A DNA stretch of 64,000 bases from the NCBI GenBank assembly GCA_963422645.2, contig CAXXVO010000007.1:480001-544000 (forward strand), in the 5' to 3' direction. How positions within the stretch are numbered: the first letter of the stretch is position 1; each line of letters begins with the position of its first letter. This DNA comes from Alphaproteobacteria bacterium (lineage in GTDB: Bacteria; Pseudomonadota; Alphaproteobacteria; UBA828). The translations under genes were made by a program, and so were the position numbers. Positions 33,741 through 42,749 of the stretch are shown in pieces. The notes beneath the pieces were generated by a model, which did not search any database, was not told the DNA's origin, and saw only the letters and a program-made list of their open reading frames with translations.

Positions 33741-34919
33741 TTGAACGACGAATCGAGCCCGGATGCGGTCCGGGAGGCCGGAGTGCGAGGTGGGGCGACA
33801 CCGGACTGCGCTCCGGGTGGCACGGCACGGGCCGAGCTGCTCCTGCCGAGTCGCGACCTGCACGCAGATCTCGCCTTCTTCCGCGAACGGCTGGGCTTCC
33901 GTCTCGATTCCATCTTTCCCGCCGACGACCCCGCGCAGGCGGTGCTGTCGGGCCACGGTGTGCGCATCCGGCTCGAACGCGGCGGCGCCGAAGCCCCCGG
34001 CGCGATCCGGCTGCACTGCGAGGACCCGGGCGCATTCGGAGATGGCGAGCGGGAGCTCCACGCCCCCAACGGCACCCGCATCGAGCTTCGGGACCTCCAA
34101 CCCCGCTTGCAGCGCCCGCTCACCCGCCACGCGCTGGTGGTCCAGCGCCAGGACGCGAAGGGCGGCGCGTGGGTGGTGGGCCGCGCCGGCATGCATTACC
34201 GGGACCTCATTCCGGGGCGCCTCGGCGGGGCGATCATCGCCTCGCACATCCGCATCCCGGAGGCGGGACCGGTGCCCGACGACGTGCACTACCACATCGC
34301 GGCATTCCAGCTCATCTACTGCTACCGGGGCTGGGTGGACCTCGTGTACGAGGACCAGGGTCCGCCCTTCCGCCTCGAAGCCGGGGACTGCCTCATTCAG
34401 CCCCCGCAGATCCGCCACCGGGTGCTCGAGTCCTCCGCCGGCCTGGAAGTGATCGAGATTGCGGTGCCGGCGGAGCACCTCACCGCGCTCGATCACGCGC
34501 TGGAGCTTCCCACCGGCCAGTTGCGTCCGGATCGTGACTTCGGCGGCCAGCGCTTCTGCCGCCACTTGGCGCGCGACGCGGTCTGGAACCCGGCCCGCCT
34601 TCCCGGGTTTTCCGCCTGCGACACCGGAATCGCCGCCGCCACCGGCGGGGTGGCGAGCGCGCAAGTCGCGAGACGCACTGACGGCGGCGGCGACGCTGCG
34701 GACACCAGCCATGACGCGGACATCCTCTTCACCTTCGTCCTGGAAGGCGGAATGACACTGCGCGTGCCGGCGCGCGAGACCTGCGCGCTTCGGGCGGGAG
34801 ACGCCTTCGTGCTGCCGCCGGGCCTTCGCAACGCCTATGAGCGCTGCACGGACGACCTCGAGTTGCTGGAGGTATCCCTGCCCGGCGCCTTCGTCACGAC
34901 CATCCACCAAGACCCTTGA
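33741..34919 (+). CDS. VOC-like N-terminal domain plus tandem cupin domain protein
   Basis: FFRERLGFRLDSIFPADDP; GRAGMHYRDLIP, VHYH..FQLIY, IQPPQIRHRV; second cupin HDADILFTFVLEG. TTG start after GGGGAG inferred. Confidence 0.75.
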   Translation: MNDESSPDAVREAGVRGGATPDCAPGGTARAELLLPSRDLHADLAFFRERLGFRLDSIFPADDPAQAVLSGHGVRIRLERGGAEAPGAIRLHCEDPGAFGDGERELHAPNGTRIELRDLQPRLQRPLTRHALVVQRQDAKGGAWVVGRAGMHYRDLIPGRLGGAIIASHIRIPEAGPVPDDVHYHIAAFQLIYCYRGWVDLVYEDQGPPFRLEAGDCLIQPPQIRHRVLESSAGLEVIEIAVPAEHLTALDHALELPTGQLRPDRDFGGQRFCRHLARDAVWNPARLPGFSACDTGIAAATGGVASAQVARRTDGGGDAADTSHDADILFTFVLEGGMTLRVPARETCALRAGDAFVLPPGLRNAYERCTDDLELLEVSLPGAFVTTIHQDP

Positions 34920-34934
34920 CGGGAACTTTCGGCG

Positions 34935-35088
34935 CTAGAGCGCGTCCGTTCTTGACGGACGCGCGACAGGCCGCGACCGCGGCCCGCCGCTTAGCGGCGC
35001 CCTCGCGCGCCCGCGCGCGTATCCTCGCGACGCGGAGGCGCCGGCCGTAGGCCGGCTGCCGTGAGCGACAAAGAAGCAGAGCGTTTCC
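34935..35088. repeat. Multi-hairpin palindromic intergenic element at the left edge of the IS cluster
   Basis: Starts CTAGAG; perfect 10-bp stem GCGCGTCCGT/ACGGACGCGC (34940-34964); further stems GCCGC/GCGGC and GCCGGCC/GGCCGGC. Confidence 0.5.
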
Positions 35089-35225
35089 GTGTAGAGATCC
35101 AATTACGAGACTTCATCGTGATAGAGGATGATTCAATTTTCGTAACTACCCAGGTACCCCAATCCTGAGTTGAGGACGGTGATTATGGCGGCGGCCGCGG
35201 CCTGGTTCTGCCACCGCGATTGGTT

Positions 35226-35285
35226 CTTGACCTCATAGAGTTGCGGGACTATGGACTGCTCTCTCGCGTGACGGGAGCGGTCCAT
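35226..35285 (+). promoter_or_regulatory. Internal sigma70-type promoter and RBS/start-sequestering hairpin for the methyltransferase-transposase pair
   Basis: CTTGAC-N17-CTATGG (35226-35254); ATGGACTGCTCTC (35251-35263) pairs with GGGAGCGGTCCAT (35273-35285). Confidence 0.65.
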
Positions 35286-35949
35286 GGGGTATTTCGGCTC
35301 GAAGGCGACAGCAGGTCTGTGCCAAGCGCTGATTGCGCTGATGCCGCCGCACTCCGTCTACATCGAAAGCCACCTTGGGGGCGGGGCGCTGATGAAGCGC
35401 AAGCCGCCGGCCGTGCGTTCGATCGGCATCGACCGCGATGCGCAGGCGCTCGAGGCCTTCGTCTGCGACTACCCGGTCGATCTGGTTCACGGCTGTGCCC
35501 ATGACTTCCTGGCCTCGTTCCCGTTCCTGGGCCCGGAGCTGGTTTACAGCGATCCGCCCTATCTGCACGCGACCCGCCGCTCGGCGCAGCGCTACCGCTT
35601 CGAGTACGAGGAGGCCGGCCACGTCGCGCTTCTCGCGCTGCTCAAGGCTCTGCCCTGCCAGGTCATGATCTCGGGCCATCCGTCGGCGCTCTATGACGAG
35701 GTGCTGGCGGGATGGCGCCGGCTGGCGCTGCAGGTCACGACCCAGGGTCTGGTGCGAACCGAGGTCGTCTGGTTCAACTACGCCCCCGACCGGATGCATT
35801 GGGCCAGCCACGCAGGCCGGAACTTCACCGACCGCCAGCGCATCAAGCGCAAGGCAGCCAACTGGGGCCGGCGCTACCAGGCCTTGCCGCCGGGCGAACG
35901 CCTCGCCGTGCTCGCCGCCATGATGGCCGTCGAGGCCGAAGACACGTGA
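35284..35949 (+). CDS. Compact Dam-like (D12/alpha class) N6-adenine DNA methyltransferase
   Basis: MGYFGSK (motif X), YIESHLGGG (motif I), IGIDRD, VYSDPPY (motif IV), VMISG, RTEVVWFNY. Confidence 0.88.
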   Translation: MGYFGSKATAGLCQALIALMPPHSVYIESHLGGGALMKRKPPAVRSIGIDRDAQALEAFVCDYPVDLVHGCAHDFLASFPFLGPELVYSDPPYLHATRRSAQRYRFEYEEAGHVALLALLKALPCQVMISGHPSALYDEVLAGWRRLALQVTTQGLVRTEVVWFNYAPDRMHWASHAGRNFTDRQRIKRKAANWGRRYQALPPGERLAVLAAMMAVEAEDT

Positions 35950-37484
35950 CGGTGTCGCACTGGCACGAAGACCTCGCCGCCCGTAACGAGGCCTTCTGCT
36001 GCCTGAAGGAGCTTCTCGAGCCATCATCCCTCGCAACCACTGTCGTCGTTGCCGTCCGGGAATGGGGGCAGGGGCTGCTGCGATCAGCCACCGCGCTCGC
36101 CCGGGAAAATGCCGCACTCGAGCAGGAGAACGCGGCCCTGCGCGAGCGCATCGCCGAACTCGAGCGCAGCGCGGCCCTCAACAGCACCACAAGCAGCAAG
36201 CCCCCCGCCAGCGACGGGCTCAAGAAGAAAAGCGGAGCCCAGAGGCGCACCCAAAGCCAGCGCGGAAAGTCCGGCGGGCCCAGTGGCGGCCAGCCCGGCC
36301 ACAAGGGAACCACCCTCGCGCGGAGCGACAGCCCGGACCGTGTCGTCGATCACCACCCCTCCACCTGTTCCGGCTGTGGCGTCGAGCTCTCGGACGCCGA
36401 CCGGCAAGGCGCGCCCGCCTGTCGGCAGGTCTTCGACGTACCCGAGCCGCAGCCTCTCGAGGTCACCGAACACCGCGCCCATCGCTGCCTCTGCGGCGCA
36501 TGCGGCACGCTGACACGAGCCGCCTTCCCGCCGGGCGTCACCGCCCCGGTCCAGTACGGCCCTCGCATCACCGCTTGGGTGAGTTACCTGCTGTACGCCC
36601 AGTTCGTGCCCGAGAAGCGTCTGGCCGAACTCATGAGCGACATCTTCGCGGTGTCCATCTCCACTGCCACGATCGCCGCCATGGGCCGGCGCACAGCGCA
36701 GCGCTTCGAGGGCTTCCTCGACCATGTCGCCGATCTGATCCGCACGCAGGCGCCGGTCAAGCACCTCGACGAGACCGGCCTGCGTATCGCCGCCCGTACC
36801 CGCTGGCTCCATGTGCTGTGCACCCCGTTGCTCACCGTCCTGCGCATCGGCGAGGGACGCGGCGATGTCGAAAAGAACCTGAAAGGCATCCTCGTCCACG
36901 ACGACTTCGCCCCCTACTTCACCATCAAGGGCGTCCGCCACGGCGCCTGCAACGCACATCACCTGCGCGAACTCCAGGCCCTGATCGACATCGAGAAGGA
37001 GGAATGGGCGGCGAGCATGCACCGCCTGCTTCAGCGCGCGCGCAGGGCCGCCCGCTTCGCCCGTGAGAAAGACCGTCAAGTCCCCGCCTCCCTGGTGGCC
37101 CGCATCTCAAGGGCATGGGACCGTATCCTCGAAGAAGCCATCGCCTTCCATGAGGCCCAACCGCCGCTCCAGATCGCAAAGCGAGGGCGAAAGAAACGCC
37201 GCATCGGCCACAACCTCGCGCGCCGCCTTCAAAAGCATAAGGAGGGCTGCCTGCGCTTCCTCACCGACCTGCGCACGCCGTTCACGAATAACGAGGCGGA
37301 GCGTGACATCCGTATGAACAAAGTGCATGAGAAGATCTCAGGCGGCTTCCGCTCCCTGCAAGGCGCCTGCAACTTCGCCGGAATGCGCAGCGTCATCGTC
37401 ACCGCTCGAAAGCAAGGCTGGAACATCCTGCAAATCCTGGCGCACCCGGAACCGATGCAGCTGATCCCTATACTGCGCTCCTGA
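35946..37484 (+). CDS. IS66-family transposase
   Basis: Coiled coil, NSTTSSKPPASDG, CSGCG Zn finger, APVQYGP, HLDETG, CNAHHLREL, FTNNEAERDIRM; GTGA overlap with the methyltransferase stop. Confidence 0.93.
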   Translation: MTVSHWHEDLAARNEAFCCLKELLEPSSLATTVVVAVREWGQGLLRSATALARENAALEQENAALRERIAELERSAALNSTTSSKPPASDGLKKKSGAQRRTQSQRGKSGGPSGGQPGHKGTTLARSDSPDRVVDHHPSTCSGCGVELSDADRQGAPACRQVFDVPEPQPLEVTEHRAHRCLCGACGTLTRAAFPPGVTAPVQYGPRITAWVSYLLYAQFVPEKRLAELMSDIFAVSISTATIAAMGRRTAQRFEGFLDHVADLIRTQAPVKHLDETGLRIAARTRWLHVLCTPLLTVLRIGEGRGDVEKNLKGILVHDDFAPYFTIKGVRHGACNAHHLRELQALIDIEKEEWAASMHRLLQRARRAARFAREKDRQVPASLVARISRAWDRILEEAIAFHEAQPPLQIAKRGRKKRRIGHNLARRLQKHKEGCLRFLTDLRTPFTNNEAERDIRMNKVHEKISGGFRSLQGACNFAGMRSVIVTARKQGWNILQILAHPEPMQLIPILRS

Positions 37485-37864
37485 ACTTCTCCGGCTCATC
37501 CTGAGTATCGCTGTCCTCTCATCTTGTTCGCGACGCGGCGTTCATCATCCTCTCGCGCTCAAGAGAGTAGGCACCCCCGCGGCGTGGGGGCGTTGACGCA
37601 AAAGGAACTGGCTTGTTCCATAAGAGAGAGGGGGTACCTGGGCAGTTACCAATTTTCGATGGTCATACGTTACGATGTTGTTTTAACAGGTGATAGTTGG
37701 TATGTCGACTGTTTAGATAGGATTTTTGTAACTGCCCAGGTTCTTGCTGTGAAAATTCTCTGGGATTCGGCACAACGCTACCCACGCGACGCCCGTGTGC
37801 TCCTCTGGGGTCGCCGGGTTTCACAGCTCACGATGCCCCTCTTGCGGACTGCGACCGGTAAGCT

Positions 37865-38887
37865 CAGACTTCCTGACCTCGTGATGCTGGCTGTTCTGGG
37901 CAGCGTGCCGGGAACTCCTTGAATTCTGATACATTTCGGTTGTTTCAGGCGGTTTTTCGCTGGGTGTCGCGCCCGAGGTCTGATAGTATAATTTGATACC
38001 AATTGCACGGTCTCAACCATGCCCAGTACCCTCCCAATGTGCCCTCCAGAGGCGGTCTCGATCGGCAACAGCTGCTTCGCCGTCCTGATCTCGGACGACA
38101 CCTTCACCTACTTTTCCAACCTCATTCCCTTTGACAGCCACGCCGCCGATGACCGCACGGCCATGCTCTTGCGGATCGGCCGCCTCGCGGCGATCAGCGC
38201 GGTCTCGCCGCAGGAACTGGCTGACGCTTTCGCTGTCTCGCGCGCGACGGTGCAGCGCGCACGACGGCGCTACCTGGCCGAGGGCGAAGCGGGGTTCATG
38301 AAGCCCCGGCGCGGTCGCGGGCCGTCGGTGTTCACTCCGGAGTTGGCGGAGAAGGCGACGGCGTTGCTGGCATCGGGCCTGAGCGGCTCTGCGGCGGCCC
38401 GGGTTCTCGGCGTGTCAGCGCCATCGGTCAACAAGTGGCGCCGTCAGGGACTGATCGGCAACACGGAGGCGGATGGGGAGCCCGGACGCTCAGCGCTGGC
38501 TGCGCCGCCTGACGCGGGTGCGGCTCCTGAAGGCCGTGTCGATGAAGAGAGTACCGGTGCCCCGGGGCCGGAGACGGCGCCGGGGCTGGAAGCGCAGCCG
38601 CAAACGGATCGCAGCGCGCGCGATCGGCGGGACCGGCAGGCGCCGATGGGGCGTGCGACTTGCGATGTTCCGGCTCGGGTTCTGGCCAGTTGTGGCCTCC
38701 TGCGGGTCCACATTCTTGGCCTCGCAAACGACGCCTGCGACCGTTGGATCGATGCGGTTCTGAGCGACCTGAACGCCACCGAAACGGTCTTCCCCGGCAC
38801 CCGTCTGCGCATAGTCTACGACATCGACGGGGCCTCGGAATCCGCGCGGCTCGTGTCACCTAAAATCAGCAGAGGTCAGGAAGTCTG
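37865..38887 (+). mobile_element. Internally deleted non-autonomous IS of unclassified family
   Basis: Perfect 16-bp TIR CAGACTTCCTGACCTC / GAGGTCAGGAAGTCTG; 5-bp duplication AAGCT (37860-37864, 38888-38892); the empty site is visible in IS66 copy 2 (GGTAAGCTACCCCG near 40781). Confidence 0.9.
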
Positions 38888-38888
38888 A
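38019..38888 (+). pseudogene. Internally deleted transposase: two HTH motifs plus the extreme C-terminus, no catalytic core seen
   Basis: ELADAFAVSRATVQRARRRY and AAARVLGVSAPSVNKW; LNATETVFPGTRLRIVY..GQEV runs through the right TIR, and the stop TGA uses the first target base. Confidence 0.7.
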
Positions 38889-39023
38889 AGCTACCCCGAT
38901 GTGGCCCGAAGTCCGCCCGCGCGACGGGCACCGATTTTCATTCTATGGGGTGGTCCAGCACGGCGTCGACCATGATCGTTTATGAGAATGGCTCCGCTGT
39001 TGGAGAACCCGTGCCAGGTGAGC

Positions 39024-40529
39024 TTACGCGCACTTGACGGTGGCGATGAGCCGATCCGATGGGCTGGTCAGGGCTTCGATGATATTCCAGCCCTGCTTTC
39101 TGGCGGTGGTGATGACGCTGCGCAGGATGGCGAAGTTCTCGGCCCCCTGCGCGGACCGGAAGCCCCCGGAGATCTTCTGGCGCAGCTTCATCATCCGAAG
39201 GTCGCGCTCGGCCTCGTTGTTCGTGAACCCGACCTCGAGGTCGATCAGGAACCGGAGCACCGCGCATTTGTGGTCGCGCAGCCTCAAGGCCGGATTGTGA
39301 CCGATCCTTCGCTTCCGGCGCTTCTTCCTCTTGCCAGGCGAGAACGGTGGTTGGCTCTCGTGAAAGGCCAGCGCATCGGCGATGATCTCGTCGTATCGGC
39401 GCTCGATCAGCGCCACAAGCCTCGCCGGAACGGCGATATCCTTGTCCAGCGCGATGCGGGCGGCGCGATTGGCTCGGCGCAGGAGCTGCTGCATCCGCCG
39501 GGCCCAAGCCTCCCCTTCGATGTCCACCAGCGCCTGCAACTCCCGCAGGTGATGGGCGTTGCACAGGCCGTGCTCCACCCCTTCCATCGCGAAGTACGGC
39601 TTCCAGTGATCGTGCACGACGATGCCGGAGACACCCGAGAGCAGGGCGCCGCGCTTGCCGCTGACCCGGTACGCCGCCAGCAGCGGCGTGCAGATCACAT
39701 GAAGCCACTGCGTCTGACCGCCGATCCGCAAGCCGGTCTCGTCCATGTGTTTCACCCGCGCCGTGCCCGCCGCCAGGTCCTGTATGTGCAAGGCCGCGTC
39801 CCGCAGCCGCTCGGCCGCCCTCTCGCTCATCGTCGCCAACGTCGCAGCCGTCACCGGCGCGCCGAAGAGCTCGGCCATCACCTGCGACAGCCGATCCTCC
39901 GGCAGGAAGTGAGCGTGCTGAAGGTAGACCGCCACCCCGGCAATGCGCGGGCCGTACTGCACCGGCGCCGACACCCCGTCGGGGAACGCCGCCCGGGTCA
40001 CCGTCCCGCAATGCCCGCAGCACTTGGCATGCGCCCGGTGCTCGGTCACCTCCAGGGGGCTCGGCTCGGGCAGATCGAACACCTGGCGGGCGACGGGCGT
40101 TCCCGCCCTGGCCGCGTCCGAAAGCGGCGAACCGCATCCCTTGCAGGAAGCCGGGACGTGATCCTTCACCCGATCCGGGTGATCGGCGCGGCGCAGCGTC
40201 TTGCCCTTGTGGCCGGGCTGGCCACCGGGCTTGCGGCCCGATTTGCCGCGCAGGCTTCGGGTTCGCCGCTTCGAATTCGGCTTCCTCAGCCCATCGCTCG
40301 AAGGCGGCTTGCCGCTGTTGCCGCTGTTGAGGCCGAGACGGCGCTCCAACTCCTCGATGCGCTCGACGAGACGCGCGACTTGCTCTTCCAGCCGCGCGTT
40401 CTGCTGCCGAAGCCAGGCATTTTCCTCCCGAAGCCGGGCGTTCTCCTCCTCCAGGCGGGCGATCTTCTGCGCGGGCGTTTCGGGCGCTGCTCCCGTCGAA
40501 GGGCCGCGCGGCGACTCGGGATTGCTCAT
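39024..40529 (-). CDS. IS66-family transposase (open frame; HNPAL where the other two read HNLA)
   Basis: NSGNSGKPPSSDG, CKGCG, HMDETG, CNAHHLREL, FTNNEAERDLRM. Confidence 0.92.
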   Translation of the reverse strand: MSNPESPRGPSTGAAPETPAQKIARLEEENARLREENAWLRQQNARLEEQVARLVERIEELERRLGLNSGNSGKPPSSDGLRKPNSKRRTRSLRGKSGRKPGGQPGHKGKTLRRADHPDRVKDHVPASCKGCGSPLSDAARAGTPVARQVFDLPEPSPLEVTEHRAHAKCCGHCGTVTRAAFPDGVSAPVQYGPRIAGVAVYLQHAHFLPEDRLSQVMAELFGAPVTAATLATMSERAAERLRDAALHIQDLAAGTARVKHMDETGLRIGGQTQWLHVICTPLLAAYRVSGKRGALLSGVSGIVVHDHWKPYFAMEGVEHGLCNAHHLRELQALVDIEGEAWARRMQQLLRRANRAARIALDKDIAVPARLVALIERRYDEIIADALAFHESQPPFSPGKRKKRRKRRIGHNPALRLRDHKCAVLRFLIDLEVGFTNNEAERDLRMMKLRQKISGGFRSAQGAENFAILRSVITTARKQGWNIIEALTSPSDRLIATVKCA

Positions 40530-40651
40530 GTCGTTGTTGAGTCATTTCCCGAAATTCCCGTCAAGCCCTTTCCACCAACTCCGAACGAGAAACGCCTCAA
40601 TCCACTGGCCCAAAATGACAAATCAGACGACCTGGGCAGTTACCATTTAAG

Positions 40652-42540
40652 GTAACTGCCCAGGTTCTTGCTGTGAAAATTCTCTGGGATTCGGCACAAC
40701 GCTACCCACGCGACGCCCGTGTGCTCCTCTGGGGTCGCCGGGTTTCACAGCTCACGATGCCCCTCTTGCGGACTGCGACCGGTAAGCTACCCCGATGTGG
40801 CCCGAAGTCCGCCCGCGCGACGGGCACCGATTTTCATTCTATGGGGTGGTCCAGCACGGCGTCGACCATGATCGTTTATGAGAATGGCTCCGCTGTTGGA
40901 GAACCCGTGCCAGGTGAGCTTACGCGCACTTGACGGTGGCGATGAGCCGATCCGATGGGCTGGTCAGGGCTTCGATGATATTCCAGCCCTGCTTTCTGGC
41001 GGTGGTGATGACGCTGCGCAGGATGGCGAAGTTCTCGGCCCCCTGCGCGGACCGGAAGCCCCCGGAGATCTTCTGGCGCAGCTTCATCATCCGAAGGTCG
41101 CGCTCGGCCTCGTTGTTCGTGAACCCGACCTCGAGGTCGATCAGGAACCGGAGCACCGCGCATTTGTGGTCGCGCAGCCTCAAGGCCAGATTGTGACCGA
41201 TCCTTCGCTTCCGGCGCTTCTTCCTCTTGCCAGGCGAGAACGGTGGTTGGCTCTCGTGAAAGGCCAGCGCATCGGCGATGATCTCGTCGTATCGGCGCTC
41301 GATCAGCGCCACAAGCCTCGCCGGAACGGCGATATCCTTGTCCAGCGCGATGCGGGCGGCGCGATTGGCTCGGCGCAGGAGCTGCTGCATCCGCCGGGCC
41401 CAAGCCTCCCCTTCGATGTCCACCAGCGCCTGCAACTCCCGCAGGTGATGGGCGTTGCACAGGCCGTGCTCCACCCCTTCCATCGCGAAGTACGGCTTCC
41501 AGTGATCGTGCACGACGATGCCGGAGACACCCGAGAGCAGGGCGCCGCGCTTGCCGCTGACCCGGTACGCCGCCAGCAGCGGCGTGCAGATCACATGAAG
41601 CCACTGCGTCTGACCGCCGATCCGCAAGCCGGTCTCGTCCATGTGTTTCACCCGCGCCGTGCCCGCCGCCAGGTCCTGTATGTGCAAGGCCGCGTCCCGC
41701 AAGCCGCTCGGCCGCCCTCTCGCTCATCGTCGCCAACGTCGCAGCCGTCACCGGCGCGCCGAAGAGCTCGGCCATCACCTGCGACAGCCGATCCTCCGGC
41801 AGGAAGTGAGCGTGCTGAAGGTAGACCGCCACCCCGGCAATGCGCGGGCCGTACTGCACCGGCGCCGACACCCCGTCGGGGAACGCCGCCCGGGTCACCG
41901 TCCCGCAATGCCCGCAGCACTTGGCATGCGCCCGGTGCTCGGTCACCTCCAGGGGGCTCGGCTCGGGCAGATCGAACACCTGGCGGGCGACGGGCGTTCC
42001 CGCCCTGGCCGCGTCCGAAAGCGGCGAACCGCATCCCTTGCAGGAAGCCGGGACGTGATCCTTCACCCGATCCGGGTGATCGGCGCGGCGCAGCGTCTTG
42101 CCCTTGTGGCCGGGCTGGCCACCGGGCTTGCGGCCCGATTTGCCGCGCAGGCTTCGGGTTCGCCGCTTCGAATTCGGCTTCCTCAGCCCATCGCTCGAAG
42201 GCGGCTTGCCGCTGTTGCCGCTGTTGAGGCCGAGACGGCGCTCCAACTCCTCGATGCGCTCGACGAGACGCGCGACTTGCTCTTCCAGCCGCGCGTTCTG
42301 CTGCCGAAGCCAGGCATTTTCCTCCCGAAGCCGGGCGTTCTCCTCCTCCAGGCGGGCGATCTTCTGCGCGGGCGTTTCGGGCGCTGCTCCCGTCGAAGGG
42401 CCGCGCGGCGACTCGGGATTGCTCATGTCGTTGTTGAGTCATTTCCCGAAATTCCCGTCAAGCCCTTTCCACCAACTCCGAACGAGAAACGCCTCAATCC
42501 ACTGGCCCAAAATGACAAATCAGACGACCTGGGCAGTTAC
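40652..42540 (-). mobile_element. IS66-family element, copy 2 of the tandem dimer
   Basis: Same ends as copy 1; separated from it by CATTTAAG (40644-40651); right flank GGATTTTT (42541-42548). Confidence 0.92.
40920..42426 (-). pseudogene. IS66-family transposase, frameshifted
   Basis: One extra A at 41701-41702 (CCGCAAGCCG versus CCGCAGCCG in copy 1) splits the ORF; could be a sequencing error. Confidence 0.85.
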
Positions 42541-42749
42541 GGATTTTTTAGAACGTATAGGACAGAATTTATTTCGGGGAGACAGTTGCATTGGGGTGTC
42601 AGATGAGTGCGTGTGAGAGTATGGCCGACGTGGGTTATGGTATCCAATGGATAGGTGCCATTTGATATATATTTGGGAATTCTTACGATTTCGGTCGAAT
42701 TTGAGGGTAATCTATACGGTATTGGGACGACGGACGACGGGGCACGGAC

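Follow-up and report, generated by a model that had tools for sequence, protein, structure and literature searches.

The stretch of DNA analysed here, referred to below as the window, comprises 64,000 nucleotides of contig CAXXVO010000007.1 (positions 480,001 to 544,000, forward strand) from the assembly GCA_963422645.2 of a bacterium placed in the alphaproteobacterial lineage UBA828. Reading of the sequence over positions 34900–37900 locates in it a 2508-bp insertion sequence (IS) of the IS66 family, at window positions 35142–37649, in which a small gene for a protein resembling the DNA adenine methylase Dam stands directly before the transposase gene. The small gene, its control region and the elements that carry it are the subject of this analysis. 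The features of the element, including its two open reading frames (ORFs), are as follows, the letters after IS66 denoting lineages that are told apart further below.

35134–35141: left target-site duplication CAATTTTC, identical to 37650–37657, read directly.
35142–35160, plus strand: left terminal inverted repeat GTAACTACCCAGGTACCCC, 19 bp.
35227–35255, plus strand: promoter-like site with an embedded palindrome, conserved across the IS66a-, IS66c-, IS66b/d- and IS701-borne genes.
35258–35278, plus strand: short inverted repeat or hairpin, GCTCTC...GGGAGC, between the promoter-like site and the start codon, overlapping the likely ribosome-binding site.
35284–35949, plus strand: small gene, ORF1, whose translation is a 221-aa protein assigned to the Upf31 family, with DPPY at residues 90–93.
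35946–37484, plus strand: ORF2, 512-aa IS66-family DDE transposase, with a GTG start that overlaps the ORF1 stop as GTGA.
37631–37649, minus strand: right terminal inverted repeat, 19 bp, reverse complement GTAACTGCCCAGGTACCCC.
37650–37657: right target-site duplication CAATTTTC, read directly.

The two 19-bp ends agree at 18 of their 19 bases, with a single mismatch, and the GTAACTAC with which the left end starts is also found in distant elements of the IS66c type. ORF2 scores 289.7 bits against the NCBIfam IS66 transposase model NF033517 (cut-off 180) and matches the Pfam domain DDE_Tnp_IS66 (PF03050) at E 4.4e-41, with DUF6444 above its cut-off and zf-IS66 just under; its GTG start finds support in the relatives, whose alignment to the transposase sets in at residue 1, immediately behind the small gene. 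IS66 elements have terminal inverted repeats starting with GTAA and an 8-bp target duplication, and the canonical ones carry tnpA and tnpB, whereas ISBst12 has one ORF. Within the ends of the present element there are only two ORFs, both on the plus strand, tnpA and tnpB are absent, and since the first of the two ORFs is Dam-like, the element fits the single-transposase IS66 subgroup and not the canonical layout. It is like the ISBst12-like elements in its IS66 DDE transposase, its ends starting with GTAA, its 8-bp duplication and its lack of tnpA and tnpB, and unlike them in possessing, upstream of the transposase, an additional Upf31-family gene with its own putative promoter. All that the initial annotation of this locus had described as observed, namely the ends, the 8-bp duplication, the two genes and their GTGA overlap, is correct as read from the sequence.

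When the whole unit was compared by blastn with its own genome (5.9 Mb in 23 contigs, 67% G+C), 104 alignments at an identity of at least 95% were obtained, among them 36 full-length copies with an identity of at least 99.7%. Perfect 8-bp duplications flank 22 of these 36 copies; all 22 are different, and they are A+T-rich, against a genome of 67% G+C. The copies without a duplication often have a flank in common with another copy, as is expected from recombination between copies, and many partial copies are cut by other insertion sequences. ORF1 is intact in all 36 full-length copies and the transposase frame reaches the same stop in 28 of them; six copies are 2511-bp variants with no internal stop within the translated stretch, and two copies of 2510 bp are frameshifted. 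A gene other than the transposase gene thus lies inside the ends and moves with the element in 36 of 36 full-length copies, which is what characterizes a transporter IS. The element is a highly active insertion sequence and not a single accidental capture, and the further mobilized copies with different duplications bear out its description as mobile in the initial annotation. The genome as a whole is very rich in insertion sequences, with many copies nested in or truncated by one another. A 166-nt contig corresponding to 36850–37015 was found in one of three runs guessed to be RNA, and it is evidence of neither expression nor silence.

In a sample of 401 genomes from the phylum of the window, its own genome included, only two others have a near-full-length member of the small-protein family (44% and 47% identity), and five further genomes match residues 83–170 only, as ordinary Dam-type genes would. 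Among metagenome-assembled genomes (MAGs), near-identical whole elements (L013–L074) occur in assemblies labelled as different phyla, where binning errors are possible; identity of the small protein is 93%, 88% and 81% in MAGs labelled as Tectimicrobiota, Dehalococcoidia and Binatia, respectively, and many alphaproteobacterial MAGs have several to many copies of the element each.

The ORF1 protein matches no Pfam family at E 0.01 and scores 22.1 bits against the Dam model TIGR00571, below the cut-off of 114.85, so that the score of the curated Dam/D12 family (PF02086, TIGR00571) is not reached. Its LGGGA cofactor loop is at residues 31–35. A family profile built from 31 members finds DpnM at E 1.9e-8 and E. 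coli Dam at E 1.3e-4, each match being in two pieces, with profile positions 4–62 corresponding to DpnM residues 18–76 and positions 79–157 to residues 183–266, while about 105 residues of DpnM (77–182), where its target-recognition domain lies, are without a counterpart in the small protein. The initial annotation had stated that no such domain is obvious, and the profile alignment, which skips these residues, agrees. The AlphaFold model of the small protein (predicted local distance difference test score, pLDDT, 89.8) is a compact Rossmann domain, in which the catalytic domain (residues 25–164) is an uninterrupted alternation of strands and helices with no inserted domain, followed by a C-terminal two-helix domain at residues 181–219, modelled as helices 181–199 and 203–219, which is basic and conserved. 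A Foldseek search with this model returned Dam and DpnM among the top matches, alongside general methyltransferases. The protein is therefore like Dam and DpnM (D12-class, alpha-type) in that both halves of the catalytic Rossmann fold align, and unlike them in that the target-recognition domain is gone, a C-terminal helical domain is added and the curated cut-offs are not attained. A homodimer prediction for the small protein gave a score of 0.14 against a mark of 0.42, which is uninformative either way.

The family is large. One protein search returned 3707 members at E ≤0.001, the best 120 of which are 70–100% identical and nearly all about 220 aa long, and a search of 50%-identity cluster representatives gave 5660 matches at E 0.001 and 563 at E 1e-30. 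Conservation of the motifs was counted in 150 family representatives of 40–92% identity, with those covering each position as the denominator: DPPY is kept in 137 of 147, the glycine G32 of the S-adenosylmethionine (SAM) loop in 125 of 126, E28 in 122 of 125, and an acidic residue (D or E) at position 50 in 133 of 137. Among the IS-borne small genes, the ratio of nonsynonymous to synonymous substitution rates (dN/dS) is 0.08–0.28 in pairwise comparison (16 pairs). The small gene is under purifying selection and its motifs are not decayed, so that decay in homologues, which the initial annotation had considered, was not found. In one database protein (P0128), a stretch of about 150 residues from the start of the small protein is continued by an IS66 transposase's C-terminal motif; this protein looks like a deletion fusion within such an IS.

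The genes that follow the small gene on the same strand were scored in 80 loci from reference genomes and 80 from metagenomes, three of which (L079–L081) were excluded because of an N-terminally shortened match, these too having an IS66a-type transposase downstream; a transposase lies directly downstream in 143 of the 157 loci scored, although the loci are not independent events, a few multi-copy genomes and short metagenome contigs being dominant among them. The downstream content is distributed as follows.

73 of 157 loci: IS66c-type transposase (483 aa, 26–34% identical to ORF2).
58 of 157 loci: IS66a-type transposase (ORF2-like).
7 and 2 of 157 loci: IS701-family transposases of two lineages.
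3 of 157 loci: IS1634-family transposase.
2 of 157 loci: transposase of another IS66 lineage, b.
1 of 157 loci: transposase of another IS66 lineage, d.
1 of 157 loci: IS630-family transposase.
4 of 157 loci: no transposase downstream.
6 of 157 loci: match too close to the contig end.

The representatives of IS66a, IS66b, IS66d, the first IS701 lineage, IS630 and IS1634 are above the NCBIfam cut-offs; the IS66c representative is typed by Pfam only (PF03050, E 1.6e-35), and the second IS701 lineage is typed from a truncated protein scoring 159 bits against a cut-off of 170. The small-gene loci span MAGs labelled as at least nine phyla, and the median gap between the small gene and the transposase gene is 3 nt in the IS66a type and 32 nt in the IS66c type. 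The IS66c-type units are 2.26–2.30 kb long, with GTAACTACTC(A/G)CCC ends that enclose both genes, and a perfect 8-bp duplication was seen in one of the six units examined. Three genomes contain three copies, two copies and one copy, respectively, of an IS701-type unit of about 2781 bp; its inverted ends have CTCGACTTTGTAC in common, a 5-bp CTNAG duplication flanks six of six copies, and the relative of ORF1 is located inside, upstream of the transposase. That the small gene resides inside an IS701-family element is solid for this one lineage, and with it the neighbourhood survey shows capture by different IS families, as envisaged in the initial annotation. A whole IS701 unit that is 77% identical occurs in another genome (L092), which indicates that the pairing is old and has been kept; between the IS701 forms L072 and L092, dS is 0.68 and dN/dS 0.21. 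The members of the second IS701 lineage (L139, L174) have the left segment, the small gene and the transposase in common and possess no IS66 end. Capture by IS630 (L068) or by IS1634 (L147/L148) was considered and rejected: the IS66 left end remains upstream of the small gene there, L120 and L147 retain a fragment of the IS66c transposase, and with such an end or transposase piece kept, these loci represent nested insertions into IS66 and not captures. On one metagenome contig (L159, 3501–4160), a lone family member of 65% identity is located upstream of the gene for the hexadecahaem cytochrome HmcA, with no transposase nearby, and an AATAG-N10-CTATT palindrome is still found upstream of this small gene.

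A tree of 111 family proteins, obtained by a quick IQ-TREE search with support from the Shimodaira–Hasegawa-like approximate likelihood-ratio test (SH-aLRT) only, places all IS-borne genes in one clade (SH-aLRT 100), to which the gene of a Xanthomonas plasmid is adjacent, whereas the gene of the IncP-1 plasmids is located outside, among more distant members. Inside this clade, a subclade (support 99) nested among the IS66c forms unites the IS66a forms (87) with the first IS701 lineage (93). Between IS66a and IS66c elements, the small proteins are about 70% identical and the transposases about 30%, and the closest relatives of the ORF2 transposase in its own genome are without the small gene. 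At the nucleotide level, the homology between the IS66a and IS701 forms (83.7% over 725 bp) sets in 63 nt ahead of the start codon and stops 10 nt short of the gene's end, and that between an IS66c form and an IS701b form takes in 127 nt on the upstream side of the gene and 84 nt on the downstream side; these limits imply that the unit exchanged is the gene together with its upstream control region. Promoter, operator and gene have been passed as a cassette among several IS66 lineages and have also reached elements of the IS701 family.

These observations also bear on whether the small gene might be a neutral or host-serving passenger that was picked up by chance and has no role in the life of the element. 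Such a view can draw on a sibling IS, two copies of which adjoin the present element and are described at the end, which is devoid of the gene and yet is represented in the same genome by 89 alignments longer than 1700 bp with an identity of at least 99.2%, so that the gene is dispensable for transposition by such a transposase. It is very hard to reconcile, however, with the constant position and orientation of the gene directly upstream of the transposase (143 of 157 loci), its acquisition by at least two transposase families, the long-lived association in the IS701 forms L072 and L092 and the intact state of all 36 copies, and we regard it as very improbable.

The family extends to plasmids. 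A tblastn search of 72,556 plasmids returned 196 records, all with less than 60% identity, of which 134 are typed as conjugative, and the upf31.0 gene of IncP-1 plasmids is among these relatives. Upf31.0 of pJP4 aligns end to end with ORF1 at 45% identity, with GxG, DPPY and the C-terminal RIKRK...W...ER invariant, and its gene ends the trb region of the plasmid, next to a recombinase gene. The small protein is 46.7% identical (tblastn) to the product of a 41,268-bp Bordetella pertussis plasmid record, which we presume to be pBP136, and a Xanthomonas plasmid has a 56% identical gene near transfer and stability genes. A preprint on Upf31 (bioRxiv 10.1101/2024.02.05.579024), in its available part, reports that Dam activity is absent from pBP136 Upf31, that Upf31 expressed in the methylase-free E. 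coli ER2796 from a construct made with a polymerase chain reaction product of the upf31 ORF yields no kinetic sign of modified bases when single molecules are sequenced in real time (SMRT sequencing), and that the full-length hybrid R751/pBP136 Upf31 brings its own promoter down from 4.76 to 0.09 XylE units. The same part of that text gives an inverted CAGCATCG repeat as the likely Upf31 operator, describes the C-terminal domain as modelled by its authors as a dimerisation domain and reports a link of Upf31 to KorB (bioRxiv 10.1101/2024.02.05.579024). This link has no counterpart in an IS. The inverted CAGCATCG repeat is also present upstream of upf31.0 on pJP4. Judged by architecture and operator layout, the ORF1 protein belongs to the Upf31 family: like Upf31 of the IncP-1beta plasmids pBP136, R751 and pJP4, it is a protein of about 220 aa with a Dam-like fold devoid of a target-recognition domain, borne by a mobile element, and the two have in common GxG, DPPY, the C-terminal two-helix domain with RIKRK...W...ER and a promoter palindrome of the form 5-N10-5. 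Unlike the IS gene, upf31.0 stands alone on its plasmids at the trb end, beside the recombinase gene, and not before a transposase, and its operator half-site is CATCG as opposed to the CATAG of the IS.

The control region of the small gene has a recurrent layout. In the window copy, TTGACC (35227–35232) is followed, after a 17-nt spacer, by TATGGA (35250–35255), and the palindrome consists of CATAG (35234–35238), ten bases, and CTATG (35249–35253). Aligned upstream regions show TTGAC(A/C), one base, CATAG, ten bases, CTATG, and then CT or GG, which can be read as a putative −35, a spacer of 17 nt and a −10 of the form TATGCT or TATGGA, the 5-N10-5 palindrome lying across this spacer and the −10. 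The strict pattern TTGAC-n3-ATAG-N9-12-CTAT is found in 78 of 104 distinct regions upstream of IS-borne genes and the perfect CATAG-N10-CTATG in 55, the palindrome spacing is ten in 102 of 103 scorable regions, and CGTAG..CTACG, symmetric and changed in both arms, is found in three regions, with TGTAG..CTACG in another one. The sequence CATAG-N10-CTATG occurs 59 times in the 5.9-Mb genome, always in copies or fragments of the main IS; it is found once in the window, where 0.44 would be expected when one mismatch is allowed, and no second copy of it, even with one mismatch, was found in the element, its ends or the window. Binding of the protein at the ends of the IS was rejected since the palindrome is absent from them. 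GTAC as a common methylation target was rejected as well, because the IS66c ends (GTAACTACTCACCC) lack it, although the ends of IS66a contain GGTACC and those of IS701 TGTACA. The proposal of the initial annotation that the ends are regulated by methylation is not supported for the ends themselves, which have no palindrome, and survives only in the form of methylation confined to the element's own operator.

The plasmid relatives have a counterpart of this site. On pJP4, pA1 and pLM159.2, TTGACA-G-CATCG-N10-CGATG-CT is found at the same distance from upf31.0, and these three have another CATCG-N10-CGATG farther upstream. In a chromosomal relative (G337) the sequence is TTGACA-T-CATCG-N10-CGATG, and CATAG-N10-CTATG itself occurs once on the Xanthomonas plasmid and twice on a Shewanella plasmid. 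The CATCG form of the plasmids is the inverted repeat named as the likely Upf31 operator in the available part of the preprint (bioRxiv 10.1101/2024.02.05.579024). A geometry that stays the same while the half-site differs symmetrically by one base would be the expected outcome of a protein and its operator evolving together. Directly downstream of the putative promoter, most of the 21 leaders that were folded (from 24 loci) form a stem-loop, and while the single folds are individually weak (z from +0.7 to −2.1) and the stem differs by lineage (GCTCTC/GGGAGC, GATCC/GGATC or TCCGC/GCGGA), its position is kept; it could be a hairpin at the 5′ end of the messenger RNA or a second site in the DNA.

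A conserved operator of this kind has implications for the proposal that the small protein is an orphan adenine methyltransferase of relaxed specificity which modifies DNA broadly, so that the element or its vectors would be shielded from restriction or the host methylome remodelled, essentially as the initial annotation had suggested when it described a module that could protect transposition intermediates from restriction or alter the host methylome. The intact active-site motifs in a protein without a target-recognition domain would suit such an enzyme, as would the relatives on conjugative plasmids (134 of 196 records) and the near-identical elements in MAGs labelled as different phyla. 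For a broad enzyme, though, there would be no need to conserve a palindrome in the promoter of its gene, and 36 intact gene copies in one genome would presumably be a heavy load. Upf31, which has the same architecture, showed neither genome-wide SMRT methylation nor Dam activity according to the available part of the preprint (bioRxiv 10.1101/2024.02.05.579024), and repressed itself instead, from a promoter whose layout recurs in the IS. The suggestion of the initial annotation is therefore not supported, and we consider a methylase of relaxed specificity unlikely.

The model we favour, and hold to be rather probable, is that the small gene forms with its own promoter a portable, self-repressing cassette of the Upf31 type which drives expression of the transposase. 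It draws on features seen here, namely how the element is built, in how many copies it occurs, how widely the gene is spread, the purifying selection on it and the operator layout, and self-repression is carried over from Upf31 only: since Upf31 represses itself, with no methylation detected, and the promoter layout is the same, the IS unit can be read as autoregulated. In this model, a Dam-like fold that would have lost its target-recognition domain and carries a basic C-terminal two-helix domain would bind, probably as a dimer formed through the C-terminal helices, to the palindrome within its own promoter, and the bound protein would shut this promoter down, which for Upf31 has been demonstrated and for the IS is proposed by analogy. 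The transposase would be co-transcribed with the small gene from the same promoter, the same transcript being the simplest arrangement for a transposase gene that overlaps the small gene (IS66a) or closely follows it (IS66c), and because the transposase gene follows directly and overlaps, the repressor would set transposase expression from inside the element. Such a cassette may give the IS a promoter that is independent of the insertion site, together with a negative feedback that would grow with the copy number of the element. Relatives of the cassette on conjugative plasmids are, in the same view, regulators as well.

Several points weigh against this model. The function is carried over by analogy from a relative that is only about 46% identical, and an intact active site would be superfluous in a protein that does no more than bind DNA, whereas DPPY (137 of 147) and the loop glycine (125 of 126) are kept. 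Regarding the operator, about ten upstream regions have asymmetric half-sites with one arm changed, the strict motif is missing from 26 of the 104 regions, and since CTATG overlaps the −10, its conservation is in part promoter conservation and only the CATAG half is clearly extra. A sigma-70 scan of 35100–37700 called no site, the window copy included, the latter being missed because TATGGA ends in A and the scan requires a T at position 6; no comparable palindrome was found in three of nine plasmid or chromosomal genes examined (those of Sphingobium, Vibrio and Acinetobacter). Finally, the sibling IS, with its 89 alignments against the 36 full-length copies of the present element, indicates that the cassette is not needed for spread.

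The good preservation of the catalytic motifs keeps alive a narrower idea of methylation, restricted to the element's own operator. According to this alternative, which we regard as doubtful, the small protein would be an active N6-adenine methyltransferase whose sole substrate is the adenines of CATAG in its own operator, methylation would alter the use of the promoter or the binding of the repressor, and replication, by leaving the operator hemimethylated, would set off a burst of expression of the small gene and the transposase. Host Dam controls the transposition of IS10, IS50 and IS903, where the site is GATC and the methylase is supplied by the host; under the switch alternative only, the present element would be like these in having a methylatable site that overlaps the −10 of a transposase promoter and couples it to replication, and unlike them in that the element itself would encode the enzyme. 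Family-wide conservation of DPPY, G32, E28 and position 50 together with a dN/dS of 0.08–0.28 is compatible with such an activity, and the half-sites offer adenines in a symmetric context overlapping the −10. The absence of a target-recognition domain counts against it, as does the outcome for Upf31, the only family member tested, which gave no methylation under the conditions used, as far as the available part of the preprint tells (bioRxiv 10.1101/2024.02.05.579024). With regard to the latter, a 10-base palindromic site is expected by chance only about four times per E. coli genome, and with so few sites, and a construct made from the upf31 ORF, there would have been too little for motif discovery, so that the negative SMRT result, as given in that part of the text, is compatible with a switch. 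In its broadest form, the alternative would hold that insertion sequences of at least two unrelated families carry a Dam-like enzyme, devoid of a target-recognition domain, that binds and methylates only the palindrome of its own promoter, with a co-varied version of the device on IncP-1 plasmids, a notion that we would entertain tentatively at best. If it were true, the element would hold its own replication-coupled transposase switch, independent of the host methylase, the same device with a CATCG half-site would control IncP-1 backbone genes, and the blank genome-wide methylation assays of Upf31 would be explained.

Returning to the self-repressing cassette, its components have precedents. 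M.EcoRII, M.MspI and M.SsoII repress their own promoters, and InsA of IS1 and OrfA of IS911 are IS-encoded repressors. The putative action of the small protein would resemble both groups, in that a methylase-fold protein, or the first ORF of an IS, binds close to its own promoter and limits the expression of the gene that lies downstream; it would differ from the former, which are full enzymes of restriction-modification systems, and from InsA and OrfA, which are helix-turn-helix proteins, related to the transposase, and do not constitute a separable cassette across IS families. Passenger-gene insertion sequences and IS-encoded repressors are thus known kinds. Full-text literature searches, beyond whose scope named examples may exist in ISfinder and TnPedia, brought up no account of a Dam-like or Upf31-like gene carried by an IS66 or IS701 element, nor, within the same scope, of a methylase-fold self-regulator with its own operator that is common to IS66, IS701 and conjugative plasmids.

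The accessory genes of insertion sequences are few and mostly unexplained, and here one small cassette recurs before transposases. Its protein belongs to a family of thousands of members, and the cassette is now linked to Upf31, which databases name a DNA methylase and which, in the one study testing it, as far as its available part goes, acts as a self-repressor (bioRxiv 10.1101/2024.02.05.579024). The common operator layout, with the symmetric half-site change between the two groups, offers naturally occurring variants of the protein, each matched by a variant of the operator. To annotate these genes as 'DNA adenine methylase' is probably misleading, and genomes rich in such IS copies, 36 in the present case, should not be counted as rich in orphan methylases.

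The region to the right of the element is occupied by the two copies of the sibling IS.

37728–40643, minus strand: first sibling IS66 element, with its transposase at 40412–39060 and a 1027-bp insert at approximately 37865–38891.
40652–42540, minus strand: second sibling IS copy, 1889 bp, with its transposase split into two frames.

The siblings have ends that are near-identical to those of the main element (GTAACTGCCCAGG...) and a minus-strand transposase 59–61% identical to ORF2, and tblastn found no copy of the small gene anywhere in 37700–42600, in agreement with the initial annotation, which had described a neighbouring IS66 with near-identical ends that lacks the gene. The two copies are arranged head to tail exactly 8 bp apart (CATTTAAG, 40644–40651), the pair as a whole is flanked by the 8-mer GGATTTTT (37720–37727 and 42541–42548), and another sibling copy, on contig C3, has CATTTAAG on both sides; the pair could be a tandem IS dimer or the product of recombination between copies. 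The 1027-bp insert in the first sibling (37865–38891) has the inverted ends CAGACTTCCTGACCTC and GAGGTCAGGAAGTCTG and a duplicated AAGCT, and its 289-aa product has helix-turn-helix domains, with a weak N-terminal match only to IS630 transposases. The ends of this insert also cut many copies of the main IS, and the genome contains seven near-full copies of it and gives 256 alignments with it.

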